This document shows positions 9,321 to 15,828 of a stretch of DNA of 34,786 nt, piece after piece. Source of the stretch: Candidatus Roizmanbacteria bacterium CG_4_9_14_0_2_um_filter_39_13 (lineage in GTDB: Bacteria > Patescibacteriota > Microgenomatia > UBA1406 > GWC2-37-13); the NCBI GenBank assembly GCA_002788865.1, contig PFSC01000156.1:1-34786 (forward strand), given 5' to 3'. The notes under the pieces are model-generated. The model was not told the DNA's origin. It made no database searches and saw only the letters and a list, made by a program, of their open reading frames with translations. Both the position numbers and the translations under genes were made by a program. Position 1 is the stretch's first letter. Every line of letters begins with the position of its first letter.

Positions 9321-9357
9321 TCGTTAATCACCGGCTTTTTTGATAAAATTGGAATGT
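9321..9357 (+). repeat. 37-bp direct repeat, copy 1 (immediately upstream of the Bro-N/DinD start)
   Basis: tcgttaatcaccggcttttttgataaaattggaatgt matches 10221-10257 at 34 of 37 positions. Confidence 0.9.
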
Positions 9358-9358
9358 T

Positions 9359-10216
9359 ATGATAAATAACAATTTAAACTCTTTGGCAATTTTTGAAACG
9401 TATAAAATACGTAGGCACTATGACAAAAAAACTGAAACGTGGTATTTCTCGATCATAGATATTATTGCGATTTTAATTGAACAGGATAATTTTAAAAAAG
9501 CTCAAAGTTATTGGACAACTCTTAAACATCGTCTAAAAAAAGAAGGGAATGAGTCTGTCACAAAATGTGACAAACTGAAAATGTTATCCGCTGATGGAAA
9601 ATATTACAAGACTGACGTGGCAAATGTAGAGATCCTTCTTCGCCTGATACAATCAGTCCCATCTAAAAAGGCCGAACCCATCAAGCTCTGGCTTGCAAAG
9701 GTGGGTTATGATAGAGTACAGGAAATGAGCGATCCAGAAAAAGCACTGAATCGGAGCCGTGACTATTGGCAAAAACAGGGGCGTAGCAAGAAATGGATAC
9801 AACAAAGAATGATGGGGCAAGAAACGAGAAACAAATTGACGGATTATTGGAGCGATCATAACGTGAAAAAAGGAGAAGAATTTGCAATTTTGACAAATAT
9901 TATTCATCAGGAGTGGAGTGATCTGTCTGTAAAAGGTCATAAAAACTTGAAAGGTTTGAAAACTCAAAATCTCCGAGATCACATGAGCGAAGAAGAGTTG
10001 ATTTTCACCGCCTTGGCGGAACTTTCAACAAGAAGAATTTCAGAAACGGATAAAACGGAAGGGTTGGAAGAAAATAAAATTCCCGCAAGAAAAGGTGGAA
10101 AAATTGCCAAAGATGCTCGTATTGCCTTGGAAGAAAAAATTGGACAAAGTGTAGTCACTGGGGAAAATTTTTTGCCACATTCAAGAAATCAAAAATCATT
10201 TAAGAAAAACAGCTAA
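9359..10216 (+). CDS. Bro-N domain / DinD-like (DNA-damage-inducible protein D family) protein
   Basis: 285 aa. The N-terminal LAIFETYKIRRHYDKKTETWYFSIIDIIAIL fits the Bro-N pattern (F..x..IR...d....WF...D....L). The C-terminal KGLKTQNLRDHMSEEELIFTALAELSTRR...KGGKIAKDARIALEEKIG resembles E. coli DinD. Confidence 0.6.
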   Translation: MINNNLNSLAIFETYKIRRHYDKKTETWYFSIIDIIAILIEQDNFKKAQSYWTTLKHRLKKEGNESVTKCDKLKMLSADGKYYKTDVANVEILLRLIQSVPSKKAEPIKLWLAKVGYDRVQEMSDPEKALNRSRDYWQKQGRSKKWIQQRMMGQETRNKLTDYWSDHNVKKGEEFAILTNIIHQEWSDLSVKGHKNLKGLKTQNLRDHMSEEELIFTALAELSTRRISETDKTEGLEENKIPARKGGKIAKDARIALEEKIGQSVVTGENFLPHSRNQKSFKKNS

Positions 10217-10220
10217 CCAA

Positions 10221-10257
10221 TCGTTAATCACCAGCTTTTTTGATAAAATGAGAATGT
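10221..10257 (+). repeat. 37-bp direct repeat, copy 2
   Basis: tcgttaatcaccagcttttttgataaaatgagaatgt lies directly after the Bro-N/DinD stop and runs into the GTG of the restriction-gene fragment. Confidence 0.9.
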
Positions 10258-10390
10258 GAAACACAATGAAGCAACAGATACGGATTTGAAAATAATAGAC
10301 CAACTTAAAAAGCTTGGATGGAATCCCGGCGATACTCTGCTATACCAACAGGAATATACCCTAATGCCCGAACAACAAAAACAATTTTAG
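10256..10390 (+). pseudogene. 44-codon fragment resembling the N-terminus of a type I restriction R-subunit (HsdR_N-like) protein
   Basis: The translation VKHNEATDTDLKIIDQLKKLGWNPGDTLLYQQEYTLMPEQQKQF* resembles the NEA(E/D)TR..LID..L...GW opening of HsdR_N-domain proteins. It terminates after 44 codons, far too short for a functional domain. Confidence 0.4.
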
Positions 10391-10437
10391 TTCAAAAAGT
10401 ATTTGGAGAGTTTATAAAAGAATTCAAAAAATAAACA

Positions 10438-11637
10438 ATGGCAAACAAAAATCTTACAAATGCAAAACGAGAAAAGAACGATGAGTTCTATACGCAGTAT
10501 TCCGATATTCAAAAGGAGATTGAGGCGTATCTTGAATATGACCCTGATACCTTCAAAGACAAAGTCATCTACTGCAACTGCGACGACCCGTTTGAGAGCA
10601 ATTTTTTCCGCTATTTTGTACTAAACTTCAAGCGCCTGGGACTTAAGCAACTTATCACCACAAGCTACAAACCATCACCTGTAGCCAACACGCAACTAGC
10701 ATTGTTTGGTGACGATAAAACGCTCAAACCCATCAAAGGTCGTCCAAAAATCACGGCCAACAAATTTATCATTAACGATGTTGGCGATATGGATGGCGAC
10801 GGTGCGTTTAACTTGCAGGATATTGCCATGCAGCTCAAGGCCAACAAAAATAACGAGTGGGCGCCACTGGACGGTGACGGCGATTTCCGTAGCCAAGAGT
10901 GCATAGAGCTACTTCAGCAATCTGATATCGTCGTCACTAACCCTCCATTTAGTTTATTTCGGGAATATATTACGCAACTTTTCGCGCACAAAAAACAATT
11001 TCTGATCATTGGTAATCTTAATGCAATAACCTATAAGGAAATTTTTCCAATGATTAAAGGGAATAAGGTATGGCTCGGGAACAATGCAAGAGTTAATGGT
11101 GGTGCTATGTTCTATGAAATTCCAGAAGCTATTGCAAATCTCGATCAAGTTCGCGAAATCAAAACAAATGAACAAGGAAAAAAAATATATATAACAAGAG
11201 TGCAAGGCGTACGCTGGTTTACAAATCTCGATCACGGACGATTATATCAACCAATTCCTTTAATGACCGAGGCAGATGTAATAAAGTTCAGCACTAATAA
11301 ACTGTTCGTGCACTATGATAATTATGATGCTGTCGAAATATCCCTAGTCAAAAACATCCCGAAAGACTATAACGGAGTGATGGGTGTACCAATCAGCTTT
11401 TTAGACAAGTACTCCCCTAAGCAGTTTGAAATTTTAGGAACAAGTGATAATGGTCTCGTTGATGATAAATACAAGAAAACACCAGGTTTAACAAAAAAGT
11501 TTGTTGATGATTATTATAAAGATGGTGGTACAGGAGCATATAAAGAAGGTAATCCGACAGCTGGATACTATGAAAATAACGTCGCCAAGATGGCATATAA
11601 AAGAATTTTTATCAAGCACAGAAAGGAGAAATTGTGA
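10438..11637 (+). CDS. N6-adenine DNA methyltransferase, EcoRI-methylase-like family
   Basis: 399 aa. NAKREKNDEFYTQ N-terminus, VIYCNCDDPFESNFFRYF, GDGDFRSQECIELL and the catalytic motif IV DIVVTNPPFSLFREY. Confidence 0.8.
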   Translation: MANKNLTNAKREKNDEFYTQYSDIQKEIEAYLEYDPDTFKDKVIYCNCDDPFESNFFRYFVLNFKRLGLKQLITTSYKPSPVANTQLALFGDDKTLKPIKGRPKITANKFIINDVGDMDGDGAFNLQDIAMQLKANKNNEWAPLDGDGDFRSQECIELLQQSDIVVTNPPFSLFREYITQLFAHKKQFLIIGNLNAITYKEIFPMIKGNKVWLGNNARVNGGAMFYEIPEAIANLDQVREIKTNEQGKKIYITRVQGVRWFTNLDHGRLYQPIPLMTEADVIKFSTNKLFVHYDNYDAVEISLVKNIPKDYNGVMGVPISFLDKYSPKQFEILGTSDNGLVDDKYKKTPGLTKKFVDDYYKDGGTGAYKEGNPTAGYYENNVAKMAYKRIFIKHRKEKL

Positions 11638-12800
11638 TTACAACACTCCAAAAATACACAATACATGATGTCGTAGACGGATTCGTTTATAACGAACTGG
11701 AAGGCAAAGGACTGTTTGGACTTGCGGGTAAGCTCACTATCCAGCCGGAATATCAGCGTAATTACATCTACGCCGGTGACGGTGGCAAGCGTGAGCAGGC
11801 GGTTATTGAATCGTTATTGAAAGAGTACCCCATAGGTCTACTGTATTTTAACAAGGTTAGTGATGACAAGTTTGAAGTCCTTGATGGCCAACAGCGCATC
11901 ACTAGCGTAGGGCGGTTTGTAACCGGTAAGTTTGCGATCAAAGACGCTAATGGACACGAACAGTATTTTAGTGGGATGGCTCAAAGCCAGCGCGAAAAAA
12001 TAATGAACGCGTCGCTACTAGTATATGTTTGCGTGGGTGATGAGCCTGAGATTAAAGATTGGTTCAAAACCATCAACATTGCCGGTGTGCCACTAACTCA
12101 ACAAGAAATTCTAAATGCTGTTTACTCTGGACCATTTGTCACGCTTACCAGAGAAGAGTTCAGCAACAGCAATAACTCACTTGTCCAAAAGTGGAGTGCG
12201 TATATTGCTGGCGACATAAAGCGCCAGGCATATCTAGAGTGTGCGCTGAACTGGGTGAGCCACGGTGAAATTGACGCTTATATGAGCAAGCACCGCCACG
12301 ACCATGATATTACCGAACTGAAATCACACTTTACAAAGGTTATTGATTGGATATCTGGCGTGTTTACCGATGTTGAGAGTGAGATGAGGGGCTTGGAATG
12401 GGGCAGATTGTACGAAACGTATTATAAGCAAGACTATGACCCAGCTGAAGTTTCTCAACAAGTGCGCGAGCTCCTCAGTAGTTTTGAAATAAAAGATAGG
12501 CGTGGCGTGTTCGAGTATATCTTGGGTGGTTCGCAAGATACCAAACTCCTAAATGTGAGGGTATTTGACGAACCTACTAAGAAGGTAGTTTATGCTAAGC
12601 AAACCAAAATCGCTCAGACTAAGGATAAGTCCAACTGTCCATTGTGTGCTATCGGTCACGATGCTAACCACGAAAAAATCTGGAGCTTCAGCGAGATGGA
12701 TGCCGATCACGTCTCAGCATGGAGCAAGGGTGGTGAAACAAATATTGAAAACTGCCAAATGCTCTGCAAGACGCACAATAGGGCAAAAGGGAATCGATAA
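11634..12800 (+). CDS. DUF262 (ParB/Srx-like NTPase, GmrSD N-domain type) fused to an HNH nuclease
   Basis: 388 aa. IQPEYQRNYIY and LDGQQRITS are DUF262 hallmarks. The C-terminus CPLC...DADHVSAWSKGGETNIENCQMLCKTHNRAKG is a canonical HNH. The GTG start overlaps the methyltransferase stop (GTGA). Confidence 0.8.
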   Translation: MITTLQKYTIHDVVDGFVYNELEGKGLFGLAGKLTIQPEYQRNYIYAGDGGKREQAVIESLLKEYPIGLLYFNKVSDDKFEVLDGQQRITSVGRFVTGKFAIKDANGHEQYFSGMAQSQREKIMNASLLVYVCVGDEPEIKDWFKTINIAGVPLTQQEILNAVYSGPFVTLTREEFSNSNNSLVQKWSAYIAGDIKRQAYLECALNWVSHGEIDAYMSKHRHDHDITELKSHFTKVIDWISGVFTDVESEMRGLEWGRLYETYYKQDYDPAEVSQQVRELLSSFEIKDRRGVFEYILGGSQDTKLLNVRVFDEPTKKVVYAKQTKIAQTKDKSNCPLCAIGHDANHEKIWSFSEMDADHVSAWSKGGETNIENCQMLCKTHNRAKGNR

Positions 12801-12813
12801 GTGAACCAAAATT

Positions 12814-14421
12814 ATGATCTCACAAATTAACATTAAAAATTTTCGGTCTATTAAAGAGCTGAGGTTTGAGCCCAATAGCCTTACAGCTCTGATTGGTCCG
12901 AATAGTAGTGGCAAAACTAATGTTTTGAAAGCAATCGATTTAGTTTTGGGTGAAGGGTGGACGACGAAAGCTAAGGTTGCAAGAGAACTCTTTAACGACA
13001 CAACTAAATCTATTGAAATAGAGATTGTTTTTAACACACCAATTTCTGTTCCGAGCAATAGCGGTTATCGAGACACTGAAGTTTCAAGTGTTGAACTCAC
13101 AATGTCGTTAATTCCTGAATTATCAGCCAGAACAACAATAAATGGAGGCAGTACTTTTTACGGTCAGGAAACATTTAAGAAGTTATGTCATTTCATTTTT
13201 ATCACTTCAGACCGAAATTTGTCATCTGAATTAAGGGTAAGTCAATGGACTATGCTTGGGAAGATGATGAGGCTAGTTTATGAGAATTATGTTATTCATT
13301 ATGATAACAATGAACAAAAACTAAAAGACGAATTTAAAGAAAAAATGTCTCTGGCAAAGGAGTTTCTGGAAGACGATTTCTCTCAAGATATTACTTTTAA
13401 AAAATTTGTAGATACCTTTAAAGCAAAATGTAAAGAAAATAGTCTCGGACTTGCTTGTGATTTCGATCCTAGTCTGGATATCTATAACCTAAATTGGTTC
13501 TATAAAACACTGCAAGTTCATGTAAAGGAAGATATTCCCAATAAACACTTCGATAGTGAAGAGGTGGGCGCTGGGATGCAGAACTTGTTGATGATATCTA
13601 TCTTTCAAACATATTCAGAATTAATGGGAGGAAAGGTAATTTTTGGTATTGAAGAGCCAGAAATTTATCTATATCCACAAGCACAAAGATCACTATACAA
13701 AAGCTTTATCGAGCTGTCAGAAAATACACAAATCATATATACAACACATAATCCCAACTTTGTAAGTGCATATAGGGCTGATGATATTCTTTTACTCAGA
13801 AGGAGCTCTGAACTAGGGACTTACAAACTGAAAAAGGATGACTATTTTAACAGTGAGAACGCTGAAAATGATGGTGTTAAATATAAGATATACACTCATT
13901 TCAACGCGGAGAGAAATGAGCTTTTCTTTGCAAAGAAAGTATTGTTAGTCGAGGGGGCTTCAGACAAAATTTTGTTTACCACTTTGTGCGAAGAAAAATG
14001 GAATATAGACTTGGATGCACTTGGAATTTCGGTGATATCCTGTAGTGGAAAAGGTGGAGTCAATTATTTTCTGGGGGTCTGTAACTTAATTGGATTAGAA
14101 ACTTATTTTGCAGTATGGGACGAGGATCCAGAAGATAAAAGTTACAAACCAGAAAAGGATTTTTTACCTAACGTTTTAAGTAATGGTACCGGCCTAGAGG
14201 TCGCGGTGAATTTAGAATCATTTTTAGGTTTATCTAGTTCCAATGATTCAGGGAAAGTAAAAAACGCACACAAATGGGCGCTCGATGTCAAATTCGATGA
14301 AATCCCAGACGAGTTTCAAAAGCTAAAGGATTTTTTGTCTGAGGAGATTCCGGATATCGACAATAGCGAAAAATTAGAAGAACCTATGGCGTCAAGTACA
14401 GAAGATGATATACCTTTTTAA
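12814..14421 (+). CDS. OLD-family ATP-dependent endonuclease (ABC-type ATPase + TOPRIM)
   Basis: 535 aa. Walker A GPNSSGKT, signature-like VGAGMQNLL, Walker B IFGIEEPE and H-loop TTHNP. The TOPRIM domain has LLVEGASDKILF and WDED. The acidic C-terminal tail ends EDDIPF. Confidence 0.8.
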   Translation: MISQINIKNFRSIKELRFEPNSLTALIGPNSSGKTNVLKAIDLVLGEGWTTKAKVARELFNDTTKSIEIEIVFNTPISVPSNSGYRDTEVSSVELTMSLIPELSARTTINGGSTFYGQETFKKLCHFIFITSDRNLSSELRVSQWTMLGKMMRLVYENYVIHYDNNEQKLKDEFKEKMSLAKEFLEDDFSQDITFKKFVDTFKAKCKENSLGLACDFDPSLDIYNLNWFYKTLQVHVKEDIPNKHFDSEEVGAGMQNLLMISIFQTYSELMGGKVIFGIEEPEIYLYPQAQRSLYKSFIELSENTQIIYTTHNPNFVSAYRADDILLLRRSSELGTYKLKKDDYFNSENAENDGVKYKIYTHFNAERNELFFAKKVLLVEGASDKILFTTLCEEKWNIDLDALGISVISCSGKGGVNYFLGVCNLIGLETYFAVWDEDPEDKSYKPEKDFLPNVLSNGTGLEVAVNLESFLGLSSSNDSGKVKNAHKWALDVKFDEIPDEFQKLKDFLSEEIPDIDNSEKLEEPMASSTEDDIPF

Positions 14422-14454
14422 ACTATAAATTACCAAATTATTCAAAGAAATTTT

Positions 14455-15741
14455 ATGAACGATATTATATGTCCACACTGTAAAAAAGTTTTTAAAGTTG
14501 ATGAAGCTGGGTTTGCGGATATCCTCAAGCAAGTCCGTGATCATGTATTTGACAAAGAACTACATGAACGATTAGAGCTAGCTGAAAAGGAAAAAGAGAA
14601 TGCTGTTAAGCTTGCAGAATCAAATCTTAAAAACACATTGCAGGCAGAATTGGCAAAGAAAGATAAAGAGTTGGCAGAGTTAAGAGCCGAAAATGATCGT
14701 AATCTTGCGGAGAAATTAGCAAAGAAGGAATCTGAGCTTGCTGAAATAAAGTCAAAACTTGATAAAACAGATGTTGAGAAGAAATTAAGTGTTACTGAAG
14801 CAGTAAAGAAAATTGAAAAAGAACGCGACAGTCTGGTTGGAGAGCTGAAAAGCAAAGAAACCGAGAAGCAATTGCTTGAAAAATCTTTACAGGAAAAGTA
14901 TTCCTCTGAACTCAAGACTAAAGACGACATTATCAAGATGAAAGATGATGAGATCGCCCTTCGTAAAGATATGAAATTAAAACTCAGTACCAAAATGGTG
15001 GGCGAGACTCTGGAACAGCATTGTGAGATCGAATTTAACAAGCTTCGCGCCACTGCCTTTCAAAGTGCCTATTTCGAAAAAGACAACGATTCAGCATCTG
15101 GAAGCAAGGGTGATTATATCTATCGAGAAACTGATAAGTCGGGTAATGAAATTATCTCGATCATGTTTGAGATGAAAAATGAAGGCGATGAAACTGCTAC
15201 CAAAAAACGTAATGAAGATTTTTTGCGAGAACTAGACAAAGATCGCACTGAAAAGAAATGCGAATATGCTGTTCTTGTTTCGCTTTTGGAAGCGGAAAAT
15301 GAATTATACAATACTGGTATTGTTGATGTCTCTCACAAATTTCAAAAAATGTATGTAATCCGCCCACAGTTTTTTATTCCAATAATAACTTTACTTCGAA
15401 ATGCAGCAATGAACTCTCTTAAATATAAGACTGAACTTGCTTTAGTAAAAAGTCAAAATATTGATATAACTAACTTTGAAGACAATGTTAATAAATTCAA
15501 AGAAGGGTTTGCAAAAAACTACGATCTAGCAAGTCGAAAGTTCAAAAATGCTATTGAAGAAATAGACAAAACCATTGACCATCTTCAAAAAACCAAAGAT
15601 GCCCTCCTGTCGTCAGAAAATAATCTTCGTATAGCTAATAATAAGACAGAAGATTTGACAATTAAACGGTTAACGCGAGGGAATCCTACAATGTCAGCTA
15701 AATTTGCAGAGCTTTCCGATTCCAATAAAACTATAGAATAA
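14455..15741 (+). CDS. DUF2130-like protein (Zn-knuckle, long coiled coil, C-terminal PD-(D/E)xK-like core)
   Basis: 428 aa. The N-terminus [24 protein letters not shown] is typical of DUF2130. About 170 aa of K/E/L-rich coiled coil follow, then GDYIYRE...[11 protein letters not shown] (D...ExK) and EYAVLVS, an RmuC-like architecture. Confidence 0.65.
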
Positions 15742-15799: not shown

Positions 15800-15828
15800 C
15801 CCCGAAGCAGAGCTTCGAGGAATTTTTT
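15800..15828 (+). terminator. putative intrinsic terminator after the DUF2130 gene
   Basis: ccCCGAAGC-aga-GCTTCGagg hairpin (15800-15820) followed by aaTTTTTT. Confidence 0.5.

Follow-up and report, generated by a model that had tools for sequence, protein, structure and literature searches.

Genes of Class 1 of the OLD nuclease family have been described as single and not proximal to other defence genes (PMC10568477), and the characterised Class 1 proteins nick DNA or cut tRNA (PMC12392090, PMC12445682). Class 2 OLD genes are described as always located next to a helicase gene (PMC12796447), and in Gabija each component was reported to be necessary for defence (PMC10568477). Defence systems based on ATP-binding cassette (ABC) ATPases have also been found embedded in, or appended to, methylation-based systems, e.g., PrrC and HEC-04 (bioRxiv 10.1101/2024.01.29.577857). 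In Shield, a defence nuclease with an RmuC domain stands alone, its partners being optional (PMC10270631). The DUF2130 family (COG4487) is listed in a survey of the PD-(D/E)XK superfamily as a family of unknown function (PMC3424549); no functional study of it, and none concerning defence, was found in the literature, and it is not mentioned in the OLD literature cited here. The subject of this work is an OLD gene followed on the same strand by a DUF2130 gene in 34,786 nucleotides of contig PFSC01000156.1 (positions 1 to 34,786, forward strand, hereafter the window) of Candidatus Roizmanbacteria bacterium CG_4_9_14_0_2_um_filter_39_13.

Recurrence of the OLD-DUF2130 gene pair

The two open reading frames (ORFs) are located on the + strand at 12814-14421 (535 aa) and 14455-15741 (428 aa), and the 33-nt spacer between them (14422..14454, + strand) contains no terminator. 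The initial annotation of this DNA, made from the sequence alone, had named them an OLD nuclease gene and a DUF2130 gene 33 nt downstream, and the ORFs, Pfam and PADLOC all agree with this. Its statement that helicase, reverse transcriptase and DUF4435 genes are absent also held, none of them being present in the Pfam-annotated stretch (window about 4455-25741).

The closest counterparts of this pair were found in one OLD subclade (P0001-5 and P0012), distinguished with a bootstrap value of 72% in a tree constructed by neighbour joining only. A DUF2130-family gene is located 3 nt downstream of the OLD gene in loci L040/L041 (P0002, OLD 87% identical to that of the window), L042-44 (P0003, 84%), L170 (P0005, 73%) and L174 (P0012, 70%), and Pfam confirms the divergent partners, e.g., with 1.4e-55 for L170. 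In the window's subclade DUF2130 follows OLD in 5 of 6 cases versus 0 of the 35 informative loci elsewhere in the clade (Fisher p = 8e-6, phylogeny not being corrected for). The DUF2130 alleles behind the similar OLD genes of this subclade are only 23-92% identical to each other. The DNA homology between the window and L042 extends through the OLD gene and the first ~125 DUF2130 codons and breaks at window position ~14828 (L042 ~10021); this looks like a recombination junction in the region encoding the coiled coil, by which the nuclease half of DUF2130 would have been swapped. Alleles change, but the position behind OLD remains occupied by DUF2130. Between the window and L040 a single uninterrupted alignment of 2908 bp (83% identity) covers exactly the two genes, beginning with the start of OLD and finishing with the end of DUF2130, and their flanks are unrelated.

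An OLD-type gene is also located immediately upstream of DUF2130 in 7 of 102 DUF2130 loci, which were retrieved with the window's DUF2130 protein as the query. These cases come from two further OLD-type clades, B and C, in addition to that of the window, A; PADLOC gives Old as the best match for both. In all three separate clades the order is always OLD and then DUF2130, with gaps from -4 to +50 nt. The clade B protein, that of L048, shares 26-29% identity with the window OLD and lacks a Pfam TOPRIM match. The OLD-type gene upstream in L048 is a different one, but the last ~28 nt of the spacer are common to L048 and the window (blastn from 14426). The clade C proteins (L126/127/128/130/135/139) are longer, at 626-715 aa, with an identity of about 25% to that of the window. 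One context of the clade C pair is recurring and annotated as viral in IMG/VR; in another the pair is embedded in a Hma-like system, with the order WYL regulator, SNF2 helicase, DUF4391, clade C OLD, DUF2130 and N6/N4 methylase (L159 106-9851, from the contig of L139). Additionally, in L045 and L146 an AAA_15-type ATPase gene lies inside a Type I restriction-modification (RM) operon with DUF2130 as its last gene.

OLD followed by DUF2130 recurs as a cassette of two genes, which are transferred together as one block. Judging from these gene neighbourhoods, there is about an even chance that it acts as a facultative functional accessory cassette in methylation-based defence operons, and our best reading of the pairing is a variant of Class 1 OLD defence with a facultative accessory, as opposed to an obligate complex of the GajA-GajB kind. 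Neither gene needs the other for its persistence.

Several observations weigh against a functional link. None of the 33 species-representative OLD loci has DUF2130 within 6 kb (phmmer with the window protein, and again a family hidden Markov model and a divergent DUF2130 query), and the typical neighbour of the OLD clade is an RM system, not DUF2130. About 93% of the sampled DUF2130 loci lack an adjacent OLD gene, five of the ten clade C OLDs stand alone, and DUF2130 is found alone on plasmids, flanked in Bradyrhizobium by insertion sequences (IS). The tight spacing is not OLD-specific, since HsdR, AAA_13 and other unrelated genes are located as tightly upstream of DUF2130 (gaps of -4 to about 20 nt). 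The clade A partners do not co-diverge: OLD proteins 84% identical are accompanied by DUF2130 proteins 59% identical, and OLD proteins 29% identical by DUF2130 proteins 88% identical. In L049 (4794-8299) a methylase and a DUF262-HNH protein related to those of the window island described below (49% and 34% identical) are followed directly by DUF2130 (81%), with no OLD gene. The subclade signal itself could reflect block inheritance from one ancestor: L040, L042 and L170 all carry a block of a Type ISP RM gene, OLD and DUF2130, with the ISP enzymes 50-64% identical, which fits a single origin. It should also be mentioned that the locus samples are small and partly redundant (33 + 102 + 12 loci and ten look-ups), and that the neighbouring genes were called crudely from ORFs by a simple longest-first rule.

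Taken by themselves, these observations are compatible with OLD and DUF2130 being autonomous single-gene defence or selfish nucleases, which share a niche at the 3' end of methylation-based defence operons and one ancestral block and do not interact; Class 1 OLDs (PMC12392090) and the RmuC-domain nuclease ShdA (PMC10270631) each work alone. We regard this explanation as possible, although rather unlikely. It does not readily account for the same gene order in three OLD-type clades, for a slot kept filled by such divergent alleles in one subclade or for the movement of the pair as a unit into different contexts; moreover, OLD tops the families found upstream of DUF2130, even though RM genes would, by our own expectation, be far commoner.

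At the other extreme, the two genes could form an obligate two-component system, a new OLD class in which DUF2130, in a stable complex with OLD, replaces the Gabija helicase as a DNA sensor or second effector. Its junctions are tight or overlapping and its gene order is constant; the clade C pairs do co-diverge (OLD/DUF2130 identities of 77/77% and 84/87%), the cassette sits as a unit inside the Hma-like system, and the partner is present in five of the six OLD loci of the subclade to which the window belongs. Such a system is nevertheless improbable, given that close OLD relatives (P0004, P0007, P0009, P0010 and P0014, 72-74% identical) and half of clade C lack DUF2130, that most DUF2130 genes lack OLD, and that no co-divergence is seen in clade A. 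Also, no OLD-DUF2130 fusion was found among the best 150 family representatives (all ≤632 aa), and the OLD protein retains all the catalytic motifs of the autonomous Class 1 enzymes. The initial annotation had gone as far as proposing a further OLD class with DUF2130 in place of the helicase; of this, a facultative, recurrent pairing stands, while an obligate new class is not shown, the OLD proteins paired with DUF2130 being of Class 1 type and polyphyletic. The enrichment of DUF2130 near OLD homologues that it had named as a check is seen in the subclade and does not extend to the clade as a whole.

The OLD protein and the DUF2130 family

The OLD protein (12814..14421, + strand) is an ABC-ATPase/TOPRIM nuclease of the Class 1 type, matched by Pfam AAA_15 (2.3e-37), AAA_21 (4.7e-20) and OLD-like_TOPRIM (3.7e-17). 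Its best PADLOC model is Old (2e-46), and its 25 top PADLOC matches comprise Old, GajA, AriA and NsnB models, HEC-04 not being among them. The best solved relative is the OLD protein of Thermus scotoductus (PDB 6p74, 2.9e-48, residues 1-438); GajA reaches only 4.7e-12. The Walker A motif GPNSSGKT (residues 28-35) is encoded at 12895..12918 (+ strand), with G28, N30, G33, K34 and T35 invariant, and the TOPRIM domain (PF20469, residues 371-438) at 13924..14127 (+ strand), with E380-G381, D384 and D436/D438 conserved. In 18 homologues from different phyla G33-K34-T35, E280-E283, H312, E380-G381, D384, D436 and D438 are invariant. The Walker A motif, the Walker B region, the H-loop and the acidic TOPRIM residues are all kept, as in members of the OLD family.

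Within this family the protein belongs with Class 1, Old and the T. scotoductus OLD being closest and the neighbours varying over 40 or more loci, with the proviso that these neighbours are mostly RM genes and, in one subclade, DUF2130. It does not belong to Class 2 (Gabija), as no helicase domain is encoded beside it and the downstream gene is DUF2130, or to Class 3 (retron), as the neighbours have no reverse transcriptase domain. No retron RNA is present either: an Rfam search of the window matched a single tRNA, the tRNA-Met (CAU) gene at 1758-1831 on the - strand, far from the genes discussed here and the only RNA family match in the window. Class 4 (PARIS) does not apply, since a single protein of 535 aa contains both the ATPase and the TOPRIM part and a DUF4435 gene is absent.

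The OLD protein ends in an acidic, low-complexity C-terminal tail (14338..14418, + strand; ...EEPMASSTEDDIPF) with the terminus STEDDIPF-COOH. The C-terminal pattern [DE]x(0,1)[ILVMF]PF, mostly DDIPF or EDIPF, is present in 74 of the 120 closest OLD homologues and occurs in homologues from several phyla; it is absent from the short OLD forms (504-513 aa) and from clades B and C. We take this end motif to be the equivalent of the C-terminal tip of bacterial SSB, the protein that binds single-stranded DNA (E. coli SSB ends in ...DDDIPF). The SSB tip recruits genome-maintenance enzymes. No report of an SSB-like tail on an OLD protein was found in the literature on the SSB C-terminus and anti-phage defence. 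Since phage SSB triggers other defence systems, including the OLD-containing Retron-Eco8, the tail may have a bearing on the targeting or regulation of this OLD.

The DUF2130 protein (14455..15741, + strand) matches PF09903 with 8.1e-86 and 287.9 bits, against a cut-off of 26.7, over residues 151-408, and is a clear member of this family. It consists of a CxxC beta-hairpin, a long helical/coiled-coil region, a putative PD-(D/E)XK-type core and C-terminal helices. An AlphaFold2 (AF2) model, obtained from a shallow alignment and of low confidence (pLDDT 64.5), starts with a beta-hairpin (residues 2-15) and continues with helices (17-141 and 157-179) and an alpha-beta-beta-beta-alpha-beta core (186-276), which is followed by long C-terminal helices. 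The predicted nuclease core (residues 186-276; 15010..15282, + strand), delimited by this topology and by conservation, contains D220 (in GDYIY) and E239 and K241 (in FEMK); these residues and the predicted topology fit the PD-(D/E)XK superfamily. In 34 diverse family members D220 and K241 are invariant and E239 is conserved in at least 90%. C6, P7 and C9 of the CPHC motif near the N-terminus (14470..14481, + strand) are also invariant in them. The first ~40 residues are conserved family-wide whatever the partner, and no partner-specific residues were found in the N-terminus. There was no sign of a membrane anchor in the protein.

Of what had been read from the sequence of this protein, the D...ExK motif (GDYIY...FEMK) and the long coiled coil are borne out, the latter as about 160 aa of helix in the low-confidence AF2 model. 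The "Zn knuckle" shrinks to a single conserved CxxC pair. The "RmuC-like" layout is correct as an architecture, but no homology was detected: there is no Pfam match to RmuC (PF02646), and hhalign of a 34-sequence profile against E. coli RmuC gave a probability of 0.07% (E 0.71). The SMC/Rad50-like partner has to be abandoned: DUF2130 has no SMC/Rad50 ATPase head or other ATPase domain, and its CxxC is N-terminal, not at a coiled-coil apex. With no RmuC homology detected and no SMC/Rad50 head present, both comparisons are analogies only, the likeness to RmuC being confined to the combination of a coiled coil with a putative nuclease. A weak coiled-coil match to JetC (E 0.0038) was the sole one of its kind. 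A Foldseek search of the PDB with the AF2 model found nothing at E <0.2, a negative that carries no weight at the low confidence of the model, and phmmer and profile searches of PDB sequences returned coiled-coil noise only.

More than 8000 database proteins match DUF2130; clustered at 50%, those with E of 1e-30 or better form 729 clusters. The best 120 matches, 77-93% identical, bear the names of different candidate phyla (WWE3, Blackburnbacteria, Roizmanbacteria, Azambacteria, Falkowbacteria and Spechtbacterales), and the nearest homologues of both OLD and DUF2130 bear Patescibacteria names. The identity of 85-93% across different candidate phyla points to recent horizontal transfer of DUF2130. 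Family members on plasmids of Lactococcus, Bradyrhizobium, Ralstonia and Mitsuaria are still 57-61% identical to it. A tblastn search of 50,697 phage genomes with a DUF2130 protein gave no match, so the "viral" IMG/VR contigs with DUF2130 may be integrated elements or misassigned host DNA. Nothing turned up either when viral contigs were scanned with the divergent DUF2130 of the L170 type or the OLD of clade B.

The flanks of DUF2130 in the 102 loci differ almost everywhere, and the gene usually begins only a few nucleotides past its upstream neighbour, whichever this is. Among 48 substantial same-strand upstream neighbours the Pfam domains were AAA_21 (10), SMC_N (9), AAA_15 (7), OLD-like TOPRIM (6), ResIII (5, including two HsdR) and AAA_13 (4), with RhuM, HipA and others occurring once each. 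OLD is the commonest family in this set, and ABC ATPases overall account for 10 of the 48; RM genes are expected to be far commoner in genomes than OLD. A PADLOC scan of all the upstream neighbours returned mostly redundant OLD/GajA models. The downstream neighbours are mixed (AAA_13, DUF4011 helicase-nucleases, recombinases and others). AAA_13 ATPase genes were seen upstream of DUF2130 in L093, L107 and L120 and downstream in L118; those of L093 and L107, the two that were scanned, match the PADLOC candidate PDC-S06. In Lactococcus plasmids DUF2130 lies beside an RM system and is followed by a gene for a TrlF-type AAA_21 ATPase, and in Paraburkholderia and Ralstonia it adjoins DUF4297-HerA. 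The Ralstonia "AAA family ATPase" encoded upstream of DUF2130 was not similar to the clade C OLD with which it was compared. As AAA_13/PDC-S06 and TrlF-type ATPases also flank DUF2130, the family may be associated with ABC-type ATPases in general.

Could DUF2130 be a housekeeping factor, i.e., an RmuC-like DNA repair or recombination protein whose gene merely borders the defence island? Its identity of 57-61% between Patescibacteria and Proteobacteria or Firmicutes would suit such a role, some copies, e.g., that of Mitsuaria, are located next to metabolic genes, and no PADLOC model matches the protein. The much higher identities across candidate phyla, together with flanks that differ at nearly every locus, speak in the other direction, as do the copies on plasmids, among them the Bradyrhizobium one lying alone between IS elements, the neighbourhoods rich in RM, OLD, AAA_13/PDC-S06 and DUF4297-HerA genes, the DNA homology with relatives that ends at the gene ends, and the lack of detectable homology to E. 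coli RmuC. A housekeeping role is therefore very improbable. Given its varied mobile contexts, the lack of a PADLOC model and its absence from the phage genomes, DUF2130 is not a housekeeping gene and is not among the recognised defence genes, but a mobile gene, exceptionally conserved for its kind, that resides in defence islands; a ubiquitous housekeeping family, which the initial annotation had named as a refutation of its own proposal, was not what was found.

Restriction-modification linkage and the island of the window

The OLD homologues, 469 in number and 51-87% identical, come from Patescibacteria, Bacteroidota, Proteobacteria, Fibrobacterota, Planctomycetota, Omnitrophota and Bathyarchaeia, and this scatter over many phyla indicates a horizontally mobile gene. 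At 29 OLD loci the immediate same-strand upstream genes encode the Pfam domains Eco57I (7), N6_Mtase (5), Methylase_S (4) and Type_ISP_C (3), and more rarely MmeI (2), N6_N4_Mtase (2), AlwI (1) and Type III (1); the genes downstream of OLD in the clade include HsdR and HsdM. Among individual members, P0007 belongs to a RadC-IIG methylase operon, P0010 to an AlwI system, and P0009 and P0014 lie within Type I hsd operons; L172 and L171 are embedded Type I cases. Members of this highly conserved OLD clade are regularly located inside RM operons (Types I, II, IIG/ISP and III) or at their 3' ends. In this it departs from the description of Class 1 genes in PMC10568477, and with RM domains dominating upstream, with L171 and L172, and with the Hma-like L159, its location is that of the ABC-ATPase genes embedded in RM or Hma systems. 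The gene downstream of the P0004 OLD is DUF4357. A DUF4357 gene directly after OLD, in place of DUF2130, was seen in L172 (6643-7494, with a faint RAMA match) and L173 (2112-2969), and DUF4357 is possibly another accessory partner of the RM-linked OLD clade.

The window conforms to this arrangement. Upstream of the OLD gene, on the + strand, are three genes that went unmentioned in the initial annotation. The first gene of the island (9359..10216) encodes a Bro-N domain protein (Pfam Bro-N 5.6e-06) matching the PADLOC candidate PDC-S13 (1.6e-115). It is followed by a gene for an EcoRI-like N6-adenine DNA methyltransferase, a Type II RM modification subunit (10438..11637; Pfam EcoRI_methylase 3.1e-120, PADLOC MTase_II 2.5e-97), and by a gene for a DUF262 (GmrSD_N) and HNH endonuclease (11634..12800; Pfam GmrSD_N 1.4e-20 and HNH 1.7e-07, PADLOC REase_II 1.5e-81 over the full length), which is the probable restriction subunit. 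The start of the endonuclease gene overlaps the methylase stop by 4 nt, and the OLD gene starts 13 nt past the endonuclease end. With a methyltransferase gene adjoining an endonuclease gene, the sequence matches assign the two to a Type II RM system.

A terminator-like hairpin with a T-run (15803..15827, hairpin 15803-15817, + strand) is located 62 nt past the DUF2130 stop codon. It is the sole terminator-like site on the + strand of the island, none having been found on that strand from 9359 to 15741. As the only such site comes after DUF2130, OLD and DUF2130 are the final two genes of an RM-headed defence island, and the Bro-N, methylase, endonuclease, OLD and DUF2130 genes probably form one transcription unit ending at this hairpin. 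Beyond the island lie glycosyltransferase genes in one direction, and FemAB and Lon in the opposite one. Two 37-nt direct repeats, 92% identical (9321-9357 and 10221-10257), exactly bracket the Bro-N/PDC-S13 gene, a layout suggestive of its separate insertion as a cassette; no direct repeats were found around the island as a whole. A close Bro-N homologue (7.5e-123) is located downstream of DUF2130 in L047, and in L042, L043 and L171 KilA-N genes lie ahead of the RM gene.

Comparison with known defence systems

If the pair is a facultative accessory cassette, its action might be as follows. The RM pair would be the first line, restricting unmodified DNA, with OLD as a second-line or back-up guard in the manner of PrrC or HEC-04. 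The ABC ATPase of OLD would sense infection cues or anti-restriction activity and unleash the TOPRIM nuclease. DUF2130 would probably dimerise through its coiled coil and CxxC, which, speculatively, could pair across subunits around one zinc ion, and would add a second DNA cut of the PD-(D/E)XK type, either autonomously, like ShdA, or in cooperation with, or licensed by, the upstream ABC ATPase. A bolder version is unlikely: a two-protein anti-phage machine in which DUF2130 nuclease subunits, held together by CxxC and coiled coil, would bind as a dimer to the ABC-ATPase dimer of OLD, the whole being a mobile cassette in methylation-based operons that would fire when restriction is subverted, with the DDIPF tail recruiting it to, or sensing, SSB-dependent intermediates of replication or recombination. 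Were this true, it would constitute a sixth, context-defined OLD class and provide the first function for DUF2130/COG4487.

Even with the facultative pairing alone, the placement of DUF2130 in defence islands, preferentially behind ABC-ATPase defence proteins, supplies a concrete hypothesis of its function. A large cross-phylum clade of Class 1 type that is systematically attached to RM systems differs from the stand-alone picture given in the review, and the extra nuclease of one subclade and the SSB-like tip of most of the clade could explain how stand-alone OLD proteins are triggered or targeted. What is new here is an OLD of Class 1 type, linked to RM, for which a DUF2130 nuclease is an optional accessory; the case for a new OLD class has not been made.

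Among the described systems, Class 1 OLD (P2 Old, the T. scotoductus OLD of 6P74 and the Vibrio cholerae OLD) shares with the window the variable neighbourhoods and the lack of a helicase, reverse transcriptase or DUF4435 partner, and the T. scotoductus protein is the best match among solved structures; the window's clade differs in being regularly attached to RM systems and mostly SSB-like tailed, and in having DUF2130 downstream in one subclade. Gabija (GajA and the UvrD-like GajB) likewise has an OLD-family gene followed by a second gene in the same operon. However, the partner in the window is no helicase, the GajA models score far below Old and the T. scotoductus OLD, and the pairing is facultative. 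PrrC in Type I RM systems and HEC-04, an ATPase-TOPRIM fusion in Hma, resemble the window in that a methylation-based system contains, or ends with, the gene for an ABC ATPase, TOPRIM-bearing or not, and the clade C pair is embedded in a Hma-like one; the proposed logic, a guard in the second line that responds to an attack on the primary system, would also be common to them. A DUF2130 gene is present in none of the described embedded systems, RM, BREX or Hma.

Septu (PtuA/PtuB), HEC-02 (ATPase and NERD) and Lamassu (LmuB/LmuA) are comparable as combinations of an ABC ATPase sensor with a separate nuclease effector, and DUF2130 also follows AAA_13/PDC-S06 and AAA_15-type ATPases; in the window, in contrast to these systems, a TOPRIM nuclease is already part of the ATPase protein, and the two genes are not obligate partners. 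The nearest functional analogue of DUF2130 itself is ShdA of Shield, a nuclease of the PD-(D/E)XK type that can act alone and occurs in subtypes with the optional partners ShdB-E. ShdA is described as membrane-associated and belongs to the RmuC family, whereas DUF2130 has no detectable RmuC homology and is distinguished by its CxxC hairpin.

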